From IMG/VR virus record IMGVR_UViG_2606217102_000023, positions 1 to 7,384 of that record: a stretch of 7,384 nucleotides of DNA. One strand, 5' to 3'. The translations under genes were made by a program, and so were the position numbers. This DNA comes from a virus. Its lineage: Duplodnaviria > Heunggongvirae > Uroviricota > Caudoviricetes. The notes under the pieces are model-generated. The model worked only from the letters and a program-made list of their open reading frames with translations, was not told the DNA's origin and ran no database searches. Shown here one piece after another: positions 580 through 7,384 of this stretch (position 1 is its first letter; each line of letters opens with the position of its first letter).

Positions 580-1629
580 TCAGGATATGGGCGGGGTATC
601 CAGCAGTGCGTAAGGGTTAAAACGGATCACCTCTTCGCCCAGCCAGTCATTAACGTGCTTCATCGCCTCCATCACCGGCATCAGTTCGTTGATCGCAAAC
701 ACTCTGGCCGCCTTCTCCACATCACCAAAAGAACCCTGCCCGCTGGGCATTGCGCCCATCAGTTGTGGTGGTACACGGTGAGCGGCCAGCACATCATCAC
801 GGGAGGCCGCCTTGACGTTCATGAACTCATCCCGGGCGGTGATCTGCTGGAATGGCAGGATTTGCACACCGTCCTTCCCGCCGTTCGGTGCCTGGAGTAG
901 CAGGTTCTTGAATGCCCCACCGCCTCTTGCGCCCTGCAACGCTCTTTCGAGAGCCTGCATACTTTCGCGATCAACCTGTGCTGCCCCCACGTAAATGATG
1001 CAGCCTGCATGTGAACCGTTGTCATAGTAGAGTTTGCGGAAGCGATCTGCCGAGTGCGACAGACTGGCAGACAACAGGCCACCGAGATATTCCGGCATTC
1101 CGTACATCTCCTGGTTGATGTCGGGGTTCAGCACATGGCAGACGCGCCCCTGACGGAACTCGTGGTCCTGCTCCCCCGTCTGCACAAACCAGTACACATC
1201 CGGCTCAACACCACGACGGACGTATTTTGCCAGCGCGTGCCGTAGTTCCAGTTTTCCGCCCAGCCTGTTGGTGCGCAGTTCAAGAAACGCATTCCCGAAG
1301 ACAAACCAGTCCAGCGCAAAGGCGGAGAACGCCTGCCGGGAGAGCAGCCGGTGCGGAATGAAGCAGCCCAGTATGGCATTCCGCTTGAAGTACAGCGCCG
1401 ACTGGTGCCACGAGGTCTGCCGGGATGCCCGCGCCAGTCCGTACCAGTCAACGGGCGTTTCGTAGTATCTGCCGTTACTCAGGCAGTATGCGTTATCCAG
1501 CAGGTCGAGTGCGTGCGCATCGTAAGGGCCGTCGAACGAGAAGGCGCTTAACGACGGCTGGCGGCGCAGTGCCTCTGCCAGCGCCACGCCGTCATCGCGG
1601 CGCGAATATTTTCGTTTTTGTTTTTTCAT
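580..1629 (-). CDS. Phage portal protein (P2 gpQ / PBSX-type, 349 aa)
   Basis: Intact 349-aa ORF, a length typical of P2/PBSX-family portals (P2 gpQ is about 344 aa from memory). Its ATG overlaps the stop of the upstream terminase fragment (TGATG on the minus strand), matching the P-then-Q order of the P2 packaging operon. Family call is from recollection, not a search. Confidence 0.75.
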   Translation of the reverse strand: MKKQKRKYSRRDDGVALAEALRRQPSLSAFSFDGPYDAHALDLLDNAYCLSNGRYYETPVDWYGLARASRQTSWHQSALYFKRNAILGCFIPHRLLSRQAFSAFALDWFVFGNAFLELRTNRLGGKLELRHALAKYVRRGVEPDVYWFVQTGEQDHEFRQGRVCHVLNPDINQEMYGMPEYLGGLLSASLSHSADRFRKLYYDNGSHAGCIIYVGAAQVDRESMQALERALQGARGGGAFKNLLLQAPNGGKDGVQILPFQQITARDEFMNVKAASRDDVLAAHRVPPQLMGAMPSGQGSFGDVEKAARVFAINELMPVMEAMKHVNDWLGEEVIRFNPYALLDTPPIS

Positions 1630-2195
1630 CAGAACTCAATCACCCGCATTCCTGTTGCACCGTCCTCATCGCCCAGCGGCTCGTTAATGACGGCAAGCAT
1701 GGTTGCCCACGCGAGGTCGCCGTGGTTTACGCCGCGTGTGCGGTCTGTTTCATACGTTATTGCCCCGCCCGCCGTTTTTGCCTTGCGCACAGCGTTGAAT
1801 GCCCTGACCAGCTCACGTTCGCCCCGGTCATACTCCCAGCGCCCCGCACGAATAATCTGCAGCATCTTCAGCACAAGCGCGCGTTTGGATGCCAGCGTGA
1901 ACGTGTACGGCACGGCGGCAGGCCAGAACCGCCGCACTATCTGGTACACTGCCTCACCGTTACCGCCGGTCACGTCGATACCAATGTGCTGGACGTTGTA
2001 TTTGTGCGTGAACTGCTCAATCACACGGGCCTGCTCTTCAAATTCCAGCCCCTGCACCTGCAACGTCTCCACCGTGCGGAATTTGCCGCCCCTGACGGCA
2101 GGCGGTACAACAACAGACAGCGCCCCGCTGACGTAGCAGGAAACAGGGGGATTTGCCCCTGTTTTTTTGTTCAGAATGCAGCCTTCACCATTCAT
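1629..2195 (-). pseudogene. Terminase large subunit (P2 gpP-like), 3' fragment covering only the C-terminal nuclease domain; 5' two-thirds absent
   Basis: The translated ORF carries a GIDVTGGNGEA motif and an HGDLAW motif consistent with a terminase nuclease domain, and sits directly upstream of the portal with stop/start overlap. About 170 homologous codons remain where roughly 590 are expected. The first codons of the ORF (about 2140-2195) run through a hairpin/T-tract and gpU-derived DNA, so they are a spurious extension. Confidence 0.65.
2144..2168 (+). terminator. Hairpin (cagggg / cccctg, 6-nt loop) plus T7 run; part of repeat copy A
   Basis: Stem, loop and T-run read directly. The same hairpin-T7-ttcagaatgcagcc arrangement recurs at 2921-2965. 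Confidence 0.4.
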
Positions 2196-2300
2196 CTCTA
2201 ATCGTATTCAGTAATTCGCCCGCAGAAACAAACTAAAATTCATCCCCCGCATCACGCCACTGAAAGCAGACGGTAAACTCCAGATTTTCAAACCAGCGTC
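2175..2300 (-). pseudogene. Decayed second copy of the gpU-like gene 3' end (copy A of a diverged direct repeat)
   Basis: Nucleotide alignment to 2953-3080 by eye (shared ttcagaatgcagcc, agttcgcccgcagaa, catcac.ccgctgaaagc). In the gpU frame it reads FENLEFTVCFQWRDAGDEF*...SAGELLNTIRDEW*, against KKIEFSISFQRCDEDMRERFQSASAGELLNALKDKMPVAAF* in the intact gene. Two in-frame stops. Confidence 0.55.
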
Positions 2301-2534
2301 AGAAGTATTTAAATGGCACCAGATGTAATATGCAGGCGATTAATATGGTGTGCTTAAAGATCATAAAAGCGGGCAACATTAAAACTCCGGGCTGTGTAAA
2401 TTACCGCCACTCATAATCAGAGATGAAAACAGAATTAAACTGGCGGAGTGGATTGTATACATAAAATAAGTTCAGTTGTTGACTTTCACTTCCGTGAATT
2501 GATGAAGGTTATTACAATACATCGGTATGATCTC

Positions 2535-2559
2535 TCCTCCTTAAAAGGGAGGACTTTTC
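2535..2559 (+). terminator. Weak hairpin (tcctcc / ggagga) followed by cttttc
   Basis: 6-bp stem with 7-nt loop read directly. The T-tract is short and interrupted, so this is the weakest of the four. Confidence 0.3.
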
Positions 2560-2615
2560 AGAACGCAGAAATTATTTATAATCCCGTAGTGTTCTATACA
2601 TGCAAACATTCTTTT

Positions 2616-2639
2616 CCCGCCCCGTGCGGGCTTTTTTTT
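2616..2639 (+). terminator. Rho-independent terminator (cccgc / gcggg stem, T8 run)
   Basis: GC stem with 5-nt loop immediately followed by eight T, read directly. Confidence 0.6.
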
Positions 2640-2705
2640 GCCGCAAAGATACAGTAACAAACAAAATTGTAATCATGGCAATCAAAACACGAGAAACATT
2701 TTCAG

Positions 2706-2738
2706 CAATTGCAATAACAAATTAAAATATTGCAATTG
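2706..2738. promoter_or_regulatory. Inverted repeat CAATTGCAAT-N13-ATTGCAATTG (operator-like), right arm overlapping the -35 of the adjacent promoter
   Basis: Perfect 10-bp arms read directly, each containing the palindromic core ATTGCAAT, with arm centres about two helical turns apart. Confidence 0.45.
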
Positions 2739-2759
2739 ACAATCCCCGCTTAATATAAT
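2730..2759 (+). promoter_or_regulatory. Sigma70-like promoter: -35 ttgcaa (2730-2735), 18-bp spacer, consensus -10 tataat (2754-2759)
   Basis: Hexamers and spacing read directly. A perfect ttgaca also sits at 2736-2741 but only 12 bp from the -10, so it is not the functional -35. Confidence 0.4.
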
Positions 2760-2766
2760 CCCTTCC

Positions 2767-2827
2767 GGAACATAGAACATTAAATCTTCACACAATGCAT
2801 GTTGCCCTCTTTATGAGGGCTTTTTTT
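2767..2827 (+). ncRNA. Candidate small RNA of about 60 nt, from the predicted start after the promoter to the terminator T-run
   Basis: Promoter at 2730-2759 and intrinsic terminator at 2804-2827 bracket a short unit with no ribosome-binding site and no credible ORF. Purely structural inference, not homology to any known sRNA. Confidence 0.25.
2804..2827 (+). terminator. Rho-independent terminator (gccctc / gagggc stem, tttat loop, T7 run)
   Basis: Perfect 6-bp GC-rich stem, 5-nt loop and seven T, read directly. Confidence 0.6.
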
Positions 2828-2862
2828 ATTTCCAGAATATCACCATTGCCATCATCGGGCGA

Positions 2863-2890
2863 TTTATATATAGTCAGAATGTATTGACAA
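2863..2890 (-). promoter_or_regulatory. Minus-strand sigma70-like promoter: -35 ttgtca (plus 2885-2890), 16-bp spacer, -10 tataaa (plus 2863-2868)
   Basis: Hexamers read from the reverse complement. It would drive leftward transcription antisense to the candidate sRNA. Confidence 0.3.
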
Positions 2891-2920
2891 CATTTTGCTT
2901 CTTTTCCATGAAGGCCATAA

Positions 2921-2950
2921 GGGAGTGCTTTTTACACTCCCTCTTTTTTT
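2921..2950 (+). terminator. Hairpin (gggagtg / cactccc, 7-nt loop) plus T7 run, abutting the gpU-like stop; part of repeat copy B
   Basis: Perfect 7-bp stem and T-run read directly. Oriented to stop plus-strand transcripts before they run antisense into the gpU-like gene. Confidence 0.55.
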
Positions 2951-2952
2951 AT

Positions 2953-3411
2953 TCAGAATGCAGCCACAGGCATTTTGTCTTTAAGCGCGTTCAGCAGTTC
3001 GCCCGCAGAAGCAGACTGAAACCGCTCTCTCATATCCTCATCACACCGCTGAAAGCTGATGGAAAACTCAATCTTTTTTGCCTTTCCGTAACGATCCAGC
3101 TCGGAGCGGGTGGTCTGTAATCCTGTAATCACGTACATTCCGTAAATCTGCCCCGTGCCATCAATCAGCGGCCAGGGACATCCGGTGTAGGCCTGGGTGT
3201 TCAGCAGTGTCAGTGACACCTCACCACCGGTAATTTCCGGGTACAACAGACCGGACAGCGTGATCTGATCGTCACCTGCGCCAATATACTGCCAGGCCGC
3301 AGAGCGGTTAATGCGCTCATTTTTCACATGTCGCCATGTTTTGCTCTGCTGGATCTGCTGATGCGGAAGCGTTTTCAGCTCAAACACAAACATGCCAAAA
3401 ATCATCATCAT
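2953..3411 (-). CDS. Phage tail protein, P2 gpU-like (152 aa)
   Basis: The N-terminus MMMIFGMFVFELKT and the internal motifs ITLSGLLYPEITGG and WPLIDGTGQIYGMYVITG fit the P2 GpU tail-protein family as I recall it. Strong ribosome-binding site on the minus strand (AGGAG, 8 nt before ATG). No tape-measure gene upstream and no gpD downstream, so it is an orphan in a degraded tail module. Confidence 0.6.
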   Translation of the reverse strand: MMMIFGMFVFELKTLPHQQIQQSKTWRHVKNERINRSAAWQYIGAGDDQITLSGLLYPEITGGEVSLTLLNTQAYTGCPWPLIDGTGQIYGMYVITGLQTTRSELDRYGKAKKIEFSISFQRCDEDMRERFQSASAGELLNALKDKMPVAAF

Positions 3412-3616
3412 AATTGCGTCTCCTTTAGTCCCTGTCGCGGAAGCTGTTCATGCCTGTACGCGCCTGTCTGCGCATCTCTTCGCGGACGGCCTCACCAACC
3501 AGTTTTGCCAGTTCGCGCGGATTCTGTGTGTTGACGTTGTGCAGATGTACATGTATCTCACCGGAAAACGCAGCAGCCTGTGGTTGTGGCGTAGCTTCCC
3601 TTCTGGCCGCTTCGTC

Positions 3617-3874
3617 GTGTCTTTTCCGTGTCCTTTTTGTGGTGCGAGCACACGCACCCGCACCAGTCGCGCAGCGAACGATACCGGAACTGTCCGCTGG
3701 AAACTCTGCCAGTGCAACAACCCGGAATGCAGTCTCTCCTTCTCGACGCTGGAGAGTTTCGACAAAATCACTGTTAAACGTTATGGCTGCACTTCACAGG
3801 ATATTCCGTGGCAAAGCCTGCCTGCGTCTCACCGGGGTGATACGCAGTTGTCACTGCCGTTTCCGGTAATGTGA
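3617..3874 (+). CDS. Ogr/Delta-family zinc-finger transcriptional activator (about 85 aa from GTG 3617; in-frame ATG starts at 3545 and 3551 are alternatives)
   Basis: Translation MSFPCPFCGASTRTRTSRAANDTGTVRWKLCQCNNPECSLSFSTLESFDKITVKRYG aligns by eye with P2 Ogr (MFHCPLCQHAAHARTSRYITDTTKERYHQCQNVNCSATFITYES, from memory): CPxC, RTSR and the C..CS.xF.xES finger are shared. The gene is buried in the C-terminal half of the 160-aa ORF 3392..3874. Start codon uncertain, with no clear ribosome-binding site. Confidence 0.65.
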   Translation: MSFPCPFCGASTRTRTSRAANDTGTVRWKLCQCNNPECSLSFSTLESFDKITVKRYGCTSQDIPWQSLPASHRGDTQLSLPFPVM

Positions 3875-3930
3875 GCACATGCCTGTTTTTGTTTTTGTTT
3901 CTGTATTATTTTGATTCTGGAGTTTTATTT

Positions 3931-4695
3931 TTGACCGGATTTCAACAACGCATCGTGACCGAAAACCCCCGCCTGTACTGTGGCGACGCACTGGCAGTAT
4001 TACCGCATATTGAGCCGGACAGTGTGGACGCACTCATCACCGACCCGCCCTACAGTTCCGGCGCGACACACAAAGCCGGACGCAGCCTTCAGGGCAGCCA
4101 CGCAAAATATCTGAACAGTGAGAGCCTTCACCGCTTTGAGGGCTTCGCAGGTGAAAACATGGATGCCCGTTCATGGGCATACTGGATGCAGTTGTGGATG
4201 ATGCAGGCGTACCGCGCCGTCAGGCCGGGAGGGTATGCTCTGGTCTTTTCCGACTGGCGACAATTACCCGCCCTGACCGATGCTTTTCAGGCAAGTGGCT
4301 TTACATGGCGCGGCATTGTTGTCTGAAACAAAGGAAGAGCGGCGCGAACGCCTCATGTGGGGTATTTCCGGCATCAGTGCGAATTTATGGTATGGGGCAG
4401 CAAAGGCCATCTGGATAAATCCCCGAACGGCCCGTTTGACGGCTGTATGTCGTTTCCGGTCAGGCCGCAAAAGAAACTGCATCCGACCGGAAAACCGGAA
4501 GCGCTGATGGCAGAGTTGATCAGGACAGCAGGCGACGGCGGCACAGTCCTTGACCCGTTCATGGGATCGGGAACCACAGGCGTTGCCGCACTGAAAGCGG
4601 GCTGCAAATTCATCGGCATCGAGACAAGCCCGCACTACTTCAGTGTGACTGTTGAGCGACTGCGGCAGGCGCAGTTGATCCCCGCAGCAGCATAA
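3931..4695 (+). pseudogene. Beta-class DNA methyltransferase (N6-adenine / N4-cytosine type), interrupted by one in-frame TGA at 4324-4326
   Basis: Motif IV DPPY (ITDPPYSS) lies N-terminal and motif I FMGSGTT C-terminal, the beta-class order. ORFs 3871..4326 and 4357..4695 are in the same frame, separated only by TGA at 4324-4326. That TGA falls where the family has a conserved Trp (IVV*NKG here; E. coli YhdJ has RIVWSYD from memory). Probable start is TTG 3931 with GGAG 8 nt upstream; the stretch 3871-3930 is T-rich low-complexity sequence and probably non-coding. Confidence 0.8.
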
Positions 4696-4735
4696 GAAAA
4701 AGCCCGCGCATAACAGTGCGGGCTTTATGTTTCTC
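4696..4735 (+). terminator. Rho-independent terminator after the methyltransferase gene
   Basis: Stem agcccgcgc / gtgcgggct (one G-U pair), 6-nt loop ataaca, followed by T-rich tttatgtttctc and preceded by an A-run, read directly. Confidence 0.6.
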
Positions 4736-4767
4736 GAATATTTGGACACTACGTGGACACTGGAAGA

Positions 4768-4798: not shown

Positions 4799-4809
4799 AT
4801 ATTAATTTC

Positions 4810-4840
4810 TTGACCTTCCCCTTGCTGGAAGGTTTAACCT
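4810..4840 (+). promoter_or_regulatory. copA promoter with CueR operator: -35 ttgacc, 19-bp spacer containing the dyad accttcc-N7-ggaaggt, -10 taacct
   Basis: Matches the published MerR-type architecture of PcopA (19-bp spacer with CueR dyad), read directly. Ribosome-binding site aaggag at 4868-4873, 6 nt before the ATG. Confidence 0.85.
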
Positions 4841-4879: not shown

Positions 4880-5091
4880 ATGTCACAAACTATCGACCTG
4901 ACCCTGGACGGCCTGTCCTGCGGTCACTGCGTTAAACGCGTGAAAGAAAGTCTTGAACAGCGTCCGGATGTTGAGCAGGCGGATGTGTCTATCACTGAAG
5001 CGCACGTTACCGGGACTGCCAGTGCAGAACAGCTGATCGAAACCATCAAACAAGCGGGTTATGACGCATCTGTAAGCCACCCAAAGGCTAA
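4880..5091 (+). CDS. copA: CopA(Z), a 70-aa copper chaperone made by programmed -1 ribosomal frameshifting inside copA
   Basis: Slippery heptamer C CCA AAG at 5080-5086 (codons 67-69, H-P-K). After a -1 slip the next codons are GGC then TAA (5089-5091), giving 69 aa + Gly. This matches the frameshift product described for E. coli copA (Meydan et al. 2017, from memory). Confidence 0.7.
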
Positions 5092-7384
5092 ACCGCTGGC
5101 GGAGTCATCAATCCCGTCGGAAGCACTGACAGCGGTTTCTGAGGCGCTTCCGGCAGCGACCGCCGATGACGATGACAGCCAGCAGTTGCTGCTGAGCGGC
5201 ATGAGCTGCGCCAGCTGTGTCACCCGCGTACAAAATGCGCTGCAAAGCGTACCGGGCGTCACTCAGGCACGGGTAAACCTGGCGGAGCGTACTGCGCTGG
5301 TGATGGGCAGTGCCTCCCCACAAGATTTAGTGCAGGCGGTGGAAAAAGCGGGCTACGGCGCGGAAGCGATTGAAGATGACGCTAAACGCCGCGAGCGCCA
5401 GCAAGAAACCGCCGTCGCTACGATGAAGCGCTTCCGCTGGCAGGCAATTGTCGCACTGGCGGTGGGTATCCCGGTGATGGTCTGGGGGATGATCGGCGAT
5501 AACATGATGGTCACCGCTGACAACCGCAGCCTGTGGTTGGTTATCGGCCTGATAACCCTGGCAGTGATGGTTTTCGCCGGCGGCCATTTTTACCGCAGTG
5601 CATGGAAAAGCCTGCTGAACGGTGCGGCGACGATGGATACGCTGGTGGCGCTGGGTACTGGCGTGGCGTGGCTCTATTCGATGAGCGTCAACCTGTGGCC
5701 GCAGTGGTTCCCGATGGAAGCGCGACATCTTTATTACGAAGCCAGCGCGATGATTATCGGTCTGATCAATCTCGGCCATATGCTGGAAGCGCGCGCACGC
5801 CAGCGTTCTTCTAAGGCGCTGGAAAAGTTACTCGATTTAACCCCGCCGACGGCACGCCTGGTTACTGACGAAGGTGAAAAAAGCGTGCCTCTGGCAGAAG
5901 TGCAGCCAGGTATGTTGCTGCGCCTGACGACCGGCGATCGCGTGCCGGTAGATGGCGAGATTACCCAGGGCGAAGCATGGCTGGATGAAGCGATGCTGAC
6001 GGGCGAACCAATCCCGCAGCAAAAAGGCGAAGGCGATAGCGTCCATGCCGGGACAGTGGTACAGGACGGCAGTGTGCTGTTTCGTGCCAGTGCGGTTGGC
6101 AGCCATACTACGCTGTCACGAATCATTCGCATGGTGCGCCAGGCCCAGAGCAGCAAGCCAGAAATCGGTCAGCTGGCGGATAAAATCTCAGCCGTATTTG
6201 TGCCGGTAGTGGTGGTTATTGCGCTTGTCAGTGCGGCAATCTGGTATTTCTTTGGTCCGGCACCGCAGATTGTCTATACCCTGGTGATTGCCACCACGGT
6301 ACTGATTATTGCCTGTCCGTGTGCGCTGGGGCTGGCGACGCCGATGTCGATTATTTCCGGCGTCGGGCGGGCGGCTGAGTTTGGCGTGCTGGTGCGGGAC
6401 GCTGACGCGCTGCAACGCGCCAGTACACTCGACACTGTAGTGTTCGATAAAACCGGGACGCTGACTGAAGGGAAGCCGCAGGTTGTCGCAGTGAAAACAT
6501 TTGCTGATGTTGATGAAGCGCAGGCATTGCGTCTGGCGGCGGCACTGGAGCAAGGTTCCAGCCATCCGCTGGCACGAGCGATCCTCGATAAAGCAGGTGA
6601 TATGCAGCTACCGCAGGTCAACGGTTTCCGCACATTGCGCGGGCTGGGCGTGAGCGGTGAAGCTGAAGGTCATGCGTTATTGCTGGGCAATCAGGCGCTG
6701 TTAAATGAGCAACAGGTTGGTACCAAAGCTATCGAAGCGGAGATTACTGCTCAGGCATCGCAAGGGGCAACGCCTGTGCTGCTGGCGGTTGACGGGAAAG
6801 CGGTAGCCCTGCTGGCAGTACGCGATCCGTTGCGTAGTGATAGCGTGGCGGCGCTGCAACGCCTGCATAAAGCGGGATATCGTCTGGTGATGTTGACCGG
6901 GGATAACCCAACCACCGCCAATGCGATCGCCAAAGAAGCAGGGATTGATGAGGTGATCGCCGGGGTGCTGCCGGACGGTAAAGCCGAAGCGATCAAACAT
7001 CTGCAAAGTGAAGGACGTCAGGTGGCAATGGTGGGCGACGGCATTAACGACGCGCCAGCGCTGGCTCAGGCGGATGTCGGCATTGCGATGGGTGGCGGCA
7101 GTGATGTTGCCATTGAAACCGCGGCGATTACCCTGATGCGCCATAGCCTGATGGGCGTTGCGGATGCGCTCGCTATTTCCCGCGCAACGCTGCACAACAT
7201 GAAGCAGAACCTGCTCGGTGCGTTTATCTACAACAGTATCGGTATTCCGGTCGCCGCCGGTATTTTGTGGCCGTTCACTGGAACACTGCTTAACCCGGTA
7301 GTTGCCGGAGCGGCAATGGCGCTCTCGTCGATTACCGTAGTGAGTAACGCCAACCGGTTGCTGCGGTTTAAACCGAAGGAATAA
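4880..7384 (+). CDS. copA: Copper-exporting P1B-type ATPase CopA (834 aa)
   Basis: Two N-terminal metal-binding domains with GLSCGHC and GMSCASC, the transmembrane CPC motif (IACPCALG), the DKTGT phosphorylation site and the GDGINDAP hinge. Length and sequence match E. coli CopA as I recall it. Confidence 0.97.

Follow-up and report, generated by a model that had tools for sequence, protein, structure and literature searches.

The DNA methyltransferase gene that a P2-like prophage of Escherichia coli carries at its right end is very probably a recently inactivated cargo gene that was lost through ordinary decay of the prophage, and any readthrough of the in-frame TGA that interrupts it would be noise rather than evolved control. 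The gene was analyzed in a stretch of 7,384 nucleotides, hereinafter the window, that spans the end of the prophage and the adjoining chromosomal gene copA (Table 1). The original prediction left two readings side by side, a one-step recent pseudogene and a translationally throttled prophage methyltransferase. The former is supported, with Trp invariant at the position of the stop, TGG in the orthologues, no other lesion and the allele present in one clone; the latter has no positive support, with no conserved stop, a prophage that is a remnant, no RNA element and a release factor RF2 that carries Ala246. The pseudogene status as such is already known: RefSeq flags the same allele, with the PGAP label 'DNA-methyltransferase, internal stop', pseudogene, in H1827/12 and AST19, the two annotations inspected.

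Translation of the frame in the window contains one internal stop, at codon 132, and no frameshifts. This confirms that, as proposed, the two halves of the methyltransferase are in a single frame with one TGA between them and A as the next base, and that the TGA is the sole interruption. The peptide reads FTWRGIVV before the stop and NKGRAARTPH after it. With Trp restored at codon 132, the product matches the Pfam family PF01555 (N6_N4_Mtase; E = 1.4e-29, 104.1 bits, against a curated cut-off of 26.7 bits), and the gene product also matches PHROG 67, 'DNA methyltransferase' (1.1e-72). The order of the motifs, DPPY (residues 38-41) followed by FMGSG (210-214), is that of the beta class. Columns D208, G212 and S213 of motif I are invariant in an alignment of 120 homologues, and the same motif aligns in the structure of Helicobacter pylori M1.HpyAVI (5hfj). 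The frame does not run uninterrupted over both motifs: the TGA parts motif IV from motif I. No restriction partner gene adjoins the methyltransferase gene. The AlphaFold model of a 98%-identical intact allele (pLDDT 89.1, pTM 0.89) is matched by Foldseek with probability 1.00 to M.BceJIV, CcrM, M1.HpyAVI, M.RsrI and M.PvuII. Judging by family, motif order and the predicted class I methyltransferase fold, the product with Trp restored is a beta-class amino-DNA methyltransferase. The characterized PF01555 enzymes M1.HpyAVI (5hfj), CcrM (6pbd), M.BceJIV (8urk), M.RsrI and M.PvuII share its motif order, fold and length, and the Bpm protein of Bordetella phage BPP-1 (50% identity) and the methyltransferase of Escherichia phage Chuche (81% identity) are likewise phage-borne orphan enzymes; unlike in all these relatives, the frame of the window gene is broken at the invariant Trp132.

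Table 1. Features of the methyltransferase locus, the prophage remnant and the adjoining chromosome, in window coordinates
Feature	Position	Strand	Details
Phage portal gene	580-1629	-	Pfam PF04860
Truncated large terminase gene	1629-2195	-	Pfam PF17289; C-terminal nuclease domain only, 188 aa vs 580 aa in the intact protein
Deletion junction	2129-2130		14.3 kb gone relative to strain 2-1, between terminase and gpU
P2 gpU-like tail gene	2953-3411	-	Pfam PF06995, 7.1e-40
Deletion junction, 4-nt overlap	3610-3613		6.5 kb gone relative to H1827/12 and strain 2-1
ogr/Delta late-gene activator	3617-3874	+	Pfam PF04606, 6.4e-12; 56-nt gap to the methyltransferase gene
Shine-Dalgarno GGAG	3919-3922	+	8 nt upstream of the TTG start; read from the sequence
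Beta-class N6/N4 DNA methyltransferase pseudogene, orphan	3931-4695	+	254 codons; TTG start, TAA stop at 4693-4695
Private A to C change, Thr13Pro (A3967C)	3967	+	Sole difference between window and AST19; in no other copy examined
Catalytic motif IV, DPPY	4042-4053	+	Residues 38-41; 5' of the stop; D38, P39, P40 and Y41 invariant
Premature TGA	4324-4326	+	Codon 132; stands for invariant Trp (TGG); +4 base A (tga aac)
In-frame downstream ORF	4387-4695	+	ATG 4387, 102 aa; or GTG 4357, 112 aa
AdoMet-binding motif I, DPFMGSGTTG	4552-4581	+	Residues 208-217; 3' of the stop, so absent from the 131-aa product
Intrinsic terminator after the methyltransferase gene	4699-4726	+	11-bp stem, 7 GC pairs, T-rich tail
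attR, 29-bp att core TATTAATTTCTTGACCTTCCCCTTGCTGG	4800-4828		Right end of the prophage, in the copA upstream region
copA, copper-exporting P-type ATPase	4880-7384	+	Chromosomal gene flanking the prophage

The residue expected at codon 132 is indeed Trp, as the alignment proposed for checking this point makes clear: all 120 homologues aligned, with identity down to ~47%, have Trp at this position, which is one of 32 invariant columns and aligns with a Trp in the 5hfj structure. In the AlphaFold model, a core beta-strand has Trp132 as its penultimate residue (position 142 in the numbering of protein P0001; strand 135-143), and the 10-residue block around it is modeled with a mean pLDDT of 90. 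To look for further cases in the family, a degenerate pattern of 72 nt was built on the motif WRG...[W]xK....RxPHxGYFRHQ and scanned with either TGA or TGG required at the Trp codon. The TGA version had no matches in the 185,579 GTDB species genomes, where the TGG control had 82, and a single match in IMG/VR, against at least 120 for the TGG control; this single match is the same E. coli allele. Conservation of the stop among diverged homologues, the feature by which programmed readthrough is recognized, was thus not found. A 163-residue protein annotated as 'partial' (P0071) was considered as a possible second case and rejected, since its residue at the column is Trp and its end lies at a different place.

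The gene is rare in E. coli. Among 5426 complete genomes it is present in 13; 12 of these have a full-length copy at one shared position, where it follows ogr in the right-hand end region of a P2-like prophage adjoining copA. The comparison of TGG and TGA across related genomes that had been suggested bears out a change from TGG: the genomes TUM9803, 2-1 and 135 have an intact CDS of 765 nt with TGG at codon 132 in the same chromosomal position. Apart from codon 132, these alleles show 3, 17 and 21 differences to the window, respectively; many of them are synonymous and none changes an amino acid in the C-terminal half. Over the whole gene, the window is identical to the H1827/12 allele at 764 of 765 nt and to the intact TUM9803 allele at 761 of 765. 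The identical TGA is found in nine complete RefSeq genomes, which represent five independent isolates: H1827/12, E100341, AST19, AST205 and EC0026B together with its laboratory derivatives; EC0026B belongs to ST484 (PMC10569738). In a large protein collection, the 131-residue N-terminal product is recorded on 145 contigs and the 102-residue C-terminal ORF on 85. Over 3.8 kb, 1-2 SNPs separate the window from each of the ten distinct TGA contexts that were fetched, and the TGA copies as a whole differ by 0-2 SNPs; this wider sample was ascertained through the methyltransferase gene itself. Between the window and AST19 there is one SNP in 7384 nt. The corresponding N-terminal fragment with Pro13 was absent from the protein collection on exact look-up, where the Thr13 version is present. 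The TGA allele is confined to one young, near-clonal lineage of E. coli.

The element around the gene is defective and repeatedly decaying. The prophage is integrated between glsA and copA; its att core TATTAATTTCTTGACCTTCCCCTTGCTGG is repeated beside the integrase (attL) in AST19, and prophage-free E. coli genomes match the window from position 4800 onward only. About 11 kb of the prophage remains in AST19, which is equivalent to the window in this respect, vs ~38 kb in strain 2-1, where the P2-like gene set is near-complete, with an IS3 element breaking the tail-fibre region. The 14.3-kb loss removed the N-terminus and ATPase domain of the terminase, the scaffold, capsid, small terminase and lysis genes, the baseplate and the tail fibres; PGAP describes the truncated terminase of AST19 as 'incomplete; missing N-terminus', and the gene is intact in strain 2-1. 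The 6.5-kb loss took the tape measure, gpE, tail protein, tube, sheath and gpD genes, a block that members of the H1827/12 type keep. In the AST19 remnant, the replication endonuclease is truncated at the N-terminal end, and there is an insertion of IS421. The truncated terminase of 188 residues is common to every TGA context shown, and some of these contexts carry additional independent lesions, namely a split sheath gene, truncated gpU or gpD, or a lost portal gene. Given that the lesion is found in one clone inside a decaying element, the stop is best regarded as part of ordinary prophage decay. What is seen at this locus is what marks a pseudogene: a disabling lesion that intact orthologues in this position do not have, restricted to one recent lineage and lying within a defective element.

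These observations fit a simple scenario. A G to A transition that occurred in the common ancestor of a single clone of E. coli would have converted the TGG codon of the invariant Trp132 to TGA, and ribosomes would stop there and release a fragment of 131 residues, which keeps DPPY but lacks motif I along with half of the Rossmann-like core. This fragment is probably inactive since the cofactor site is missing. The stop would be one step in a series of prophage losses that includes large deletions, IS insertion and further independent lesions, and a small amount of the full-length protein would arise where Trp-tRNA(Trp) reads UGA as a near-cognate codon, an event of generic translational noise. 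Held against this scenario, besides the leaky context discussed below, are the state of the ORF, which apart from the stop and Thr13Pro in the window is undamaged, and its persistence in all nine complete genomes of the clone, from which adjacent parts of the phage have disappeared. However, a clone whose members have diverged by 0-2 SNPs in 3.8 kb is not old enough for such persistence to reveal selection. Nor is it old enough for a rate test of relaxed constraint; the one secondary mutation observed, the missense change T13P, is private to the window.

The same facts could be read as indicating that the TGA is kept and that readthrough by Trp-tRNA supplies a low, beneficial dose of the methyltransferase, possibly dependent on stress or temperature and varying from cell to cell, i.e. 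as a throttled 'pseudo-pseudogene'. We give this reading only a slim chance. The idea that UGA followed by A is a leaky context does have a basis in the literature, through a secondary citation: passages of PMC5289835 and PMC9122581 cite Engelberg-Kulka 1981 for the proneness of UGA with A at +4 to misreading by tRNA-Trp, and PMC5289835 gives C at +4 as the best-documented weak stop context. Trp is the residue usually inserted at UGA, and in K-12 reporters UGA readthrough increases at low temperature or under nutrient limitation (PMC11126739, PMC10570021). In Salmonella, proteogenomics detected low-level protein from many nonsense and frameshift pseudogenes (PMC9122581). The record of the allele on so many contigs and the otherwise undamaged ORF are also in line with a useful product. 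Against it, most of the high readthrough figures come from K-12, in which RF2 has Thr246, a reduced-function variant, and readthrough of the native UGA of nudL is undetectable with a non-K-12 RF2 (PMC5373646). The prfB gene of AST19 (L007, 33147-34245) encodes the efficient, non-K-12 form with Ala246, and its programmed frameshift site is the usual CUU UGA C. Of the elements of a recoding context, the A at +4 is in place, and no stimulatory structure was predicted: the fold of the 106 nt that include the stop and the sequence 3' of it is no better than that of shuffled sequences (z = -0.18). The gene has a TTG start, and no sigma-70-like promoter was found in a scan from 3400 to the end of the gene at 4695. 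Furthermore, the stop occurs in a single clone with essentially no divergence, the pattern scan yielded no diverged relative with TGA at this column, the host prophage is decaying around the gene, and the window copy has also gained Thr13Pro. An extended form of this proposal, that the UGA-A allele acts as a leaky switch in a domesticated remnant and delivers a small, heterogeneous dose under nutrient stress or cold, with epigenetic variation from cell to cell at less than the cost of full methylation, has in our view a very slim chance. If the throttled reading were true, this would be a natural functional bacterial UGA 'pseudo-pseudogene' that controls DNA methylation; the evidence points the opposite way. 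Under the pseudogene interpretation, trace readthrough that restores Trp132 is still physically expected, presumably at a low level, and the resulting full-length enzyme would be wild type in most members of the clone and Thr13Pro in the strain of the window.

It is scarcely credible that the locus encodes a split enzyme, in which the 131-residue piece with DPPY and a C-terminal piece with motif I, started at GTG 4357 or ATG 4387, reassemble into an active methyltransferase. In-frame start codons do occur 30 and 60 nt after the stop, and gene callers predict both ORFs and report the downstream one separately as 'DNA methylase family protein'; nevertheless, inspection of the sequence revealed no Shine-Dalgarno sequence at a workable distance from either restart codon, the nearest AGGA being 20 nt upstream of GTG 4357. 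The break would also fall within a core beta-strand of what the AlphaFold model depicts as a single-domain fold, and all of the aligned homologues are continuous, the divided arrangement being found in one clone only. The probability that the TGA encodes selenocysteine, or is an error of sequencing or assembly, is practically nil. UGA is the selenocysteine codon and the window by itself derives from one genome, read out once, but the homologues have Trp, not Cys, at this column, and an Rfam scan at E <= 1 gave no match to SECIS or any other element at the stop region, returning only two sub-threshold leader-like matches over the terminator (4648-4745); the fold downstream is unremarkable. An error is refuted by recurrence of the identical TGA in five independently sequenced isolates with complete genomes and on the 145 contigs, just as selenocysteine is refuted by the invariant Trp and the missing SECIS.

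The closest parallels to the inactivated methyltransferase gene are the nonsense pseudogenes of E. coli cryptic prophages that PGAP labels 'internal stop', which result from the same kind of point lesion in a cargo gene, are restricted to a lineage and reside in elements without morphogenetic or replication genes. In nothing material does the present case depart from these; its twist is that misreading of UGA restores the original amino acid. The extension of the phage Q-beta coat protein to the A1 protein, in which a low percentage of ribosomes in E. coli read through UGA with wild-type tRNA-Trp, offers a likeness if the window stop is read at all. In Q-beta, a functional protein naturally ends at the stop, which is conserved, and the extension is essential. 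Unlike that stop, the one in the window splits a single domain, is not conserved in any of the relatives compared and yields a short product that is without the cofactor-binding motif. The 'pseudo-pseudogenes' of Salmonella Typhi and Paratyphi A (Feng et al. 2022, PMC9122581) are likewise genes with in-frame stops and possibly a trace of full-length protein; those cases have proteomic and reporter evidence and mostly involve UAG with flanking C, whereas the window case is known from its sequence. The inactivation is of little import beyond annotation hygiene. As a case, it demonstrates that a stop which replaces a Trp codon can mimic recoding when its context is 'leaky', and that the data which separate decay from recoding are the same locus in relatives, conservation across the family and the state of the surrounding element.

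Several additional observations concern the prophage and its relatives. Among the TGA contexts, one (L011) has a split sheath gene, another (L012) has a truncated gpU and fused fragments of the tube and sheath genes, and a third (L016) has lost the portal gene and has truncated gpU and gpD. The IS3-family element of strain 2-1 (L006, 27683-28895) is frameshifted, and even this reference prophage, which carries the TGG allele, may be defective. The 6.5-kb deletion places foreign sequence directly 5' of ogr, and at 3392-3874 of the window a new ATG-initiated ORF of 160 codons runs in frame into the ogr gene of 85 residues.

A stretch of 0.75 kb in the window (2196-2952) is AT-rich (36-39% GC) and has no annotated gene in RefSeq. 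On its plus strand there are promoter-like sites at 2555-2582, 2730-2759 and 2846-2874 (10 of 12 matches), and terminator-like hairpins with a T-run at 2616-2630, 2804-2820 and 2920-2942, each ~30-50 nt after a promoter-like site; the stretch holds six terminator-like sites vs 0.7 expected. It has no match in Rfam. It looks like a series of tandem short units, each running from a promoter to a terminator, that possibly encode small RNAs, as judged from sequence features.

The att core contains a TTGACC hexamer and one arm of the inverted repeat CCTTCC...GGAAGG, which precede the start codon of copA by ~50-80 nt. We take these to be the -35 element of the copA promoter and the CueR operator, respectively, in which case the phage would integrate into and rebuild both. 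Finally, in the Bordetella phages BMP-1 (AY526908.1) and BIP-1 (AY526909.1), the homologue of BPP-1 bpm matches in two pieces at ~29791-30497 and is unannotated, while in BPP-1 itself the bpm adenine methyltransferase is one intact annotated gene; the homologue in BMP-1 and BIP-1 may be another disrupted phage methyltransferase.
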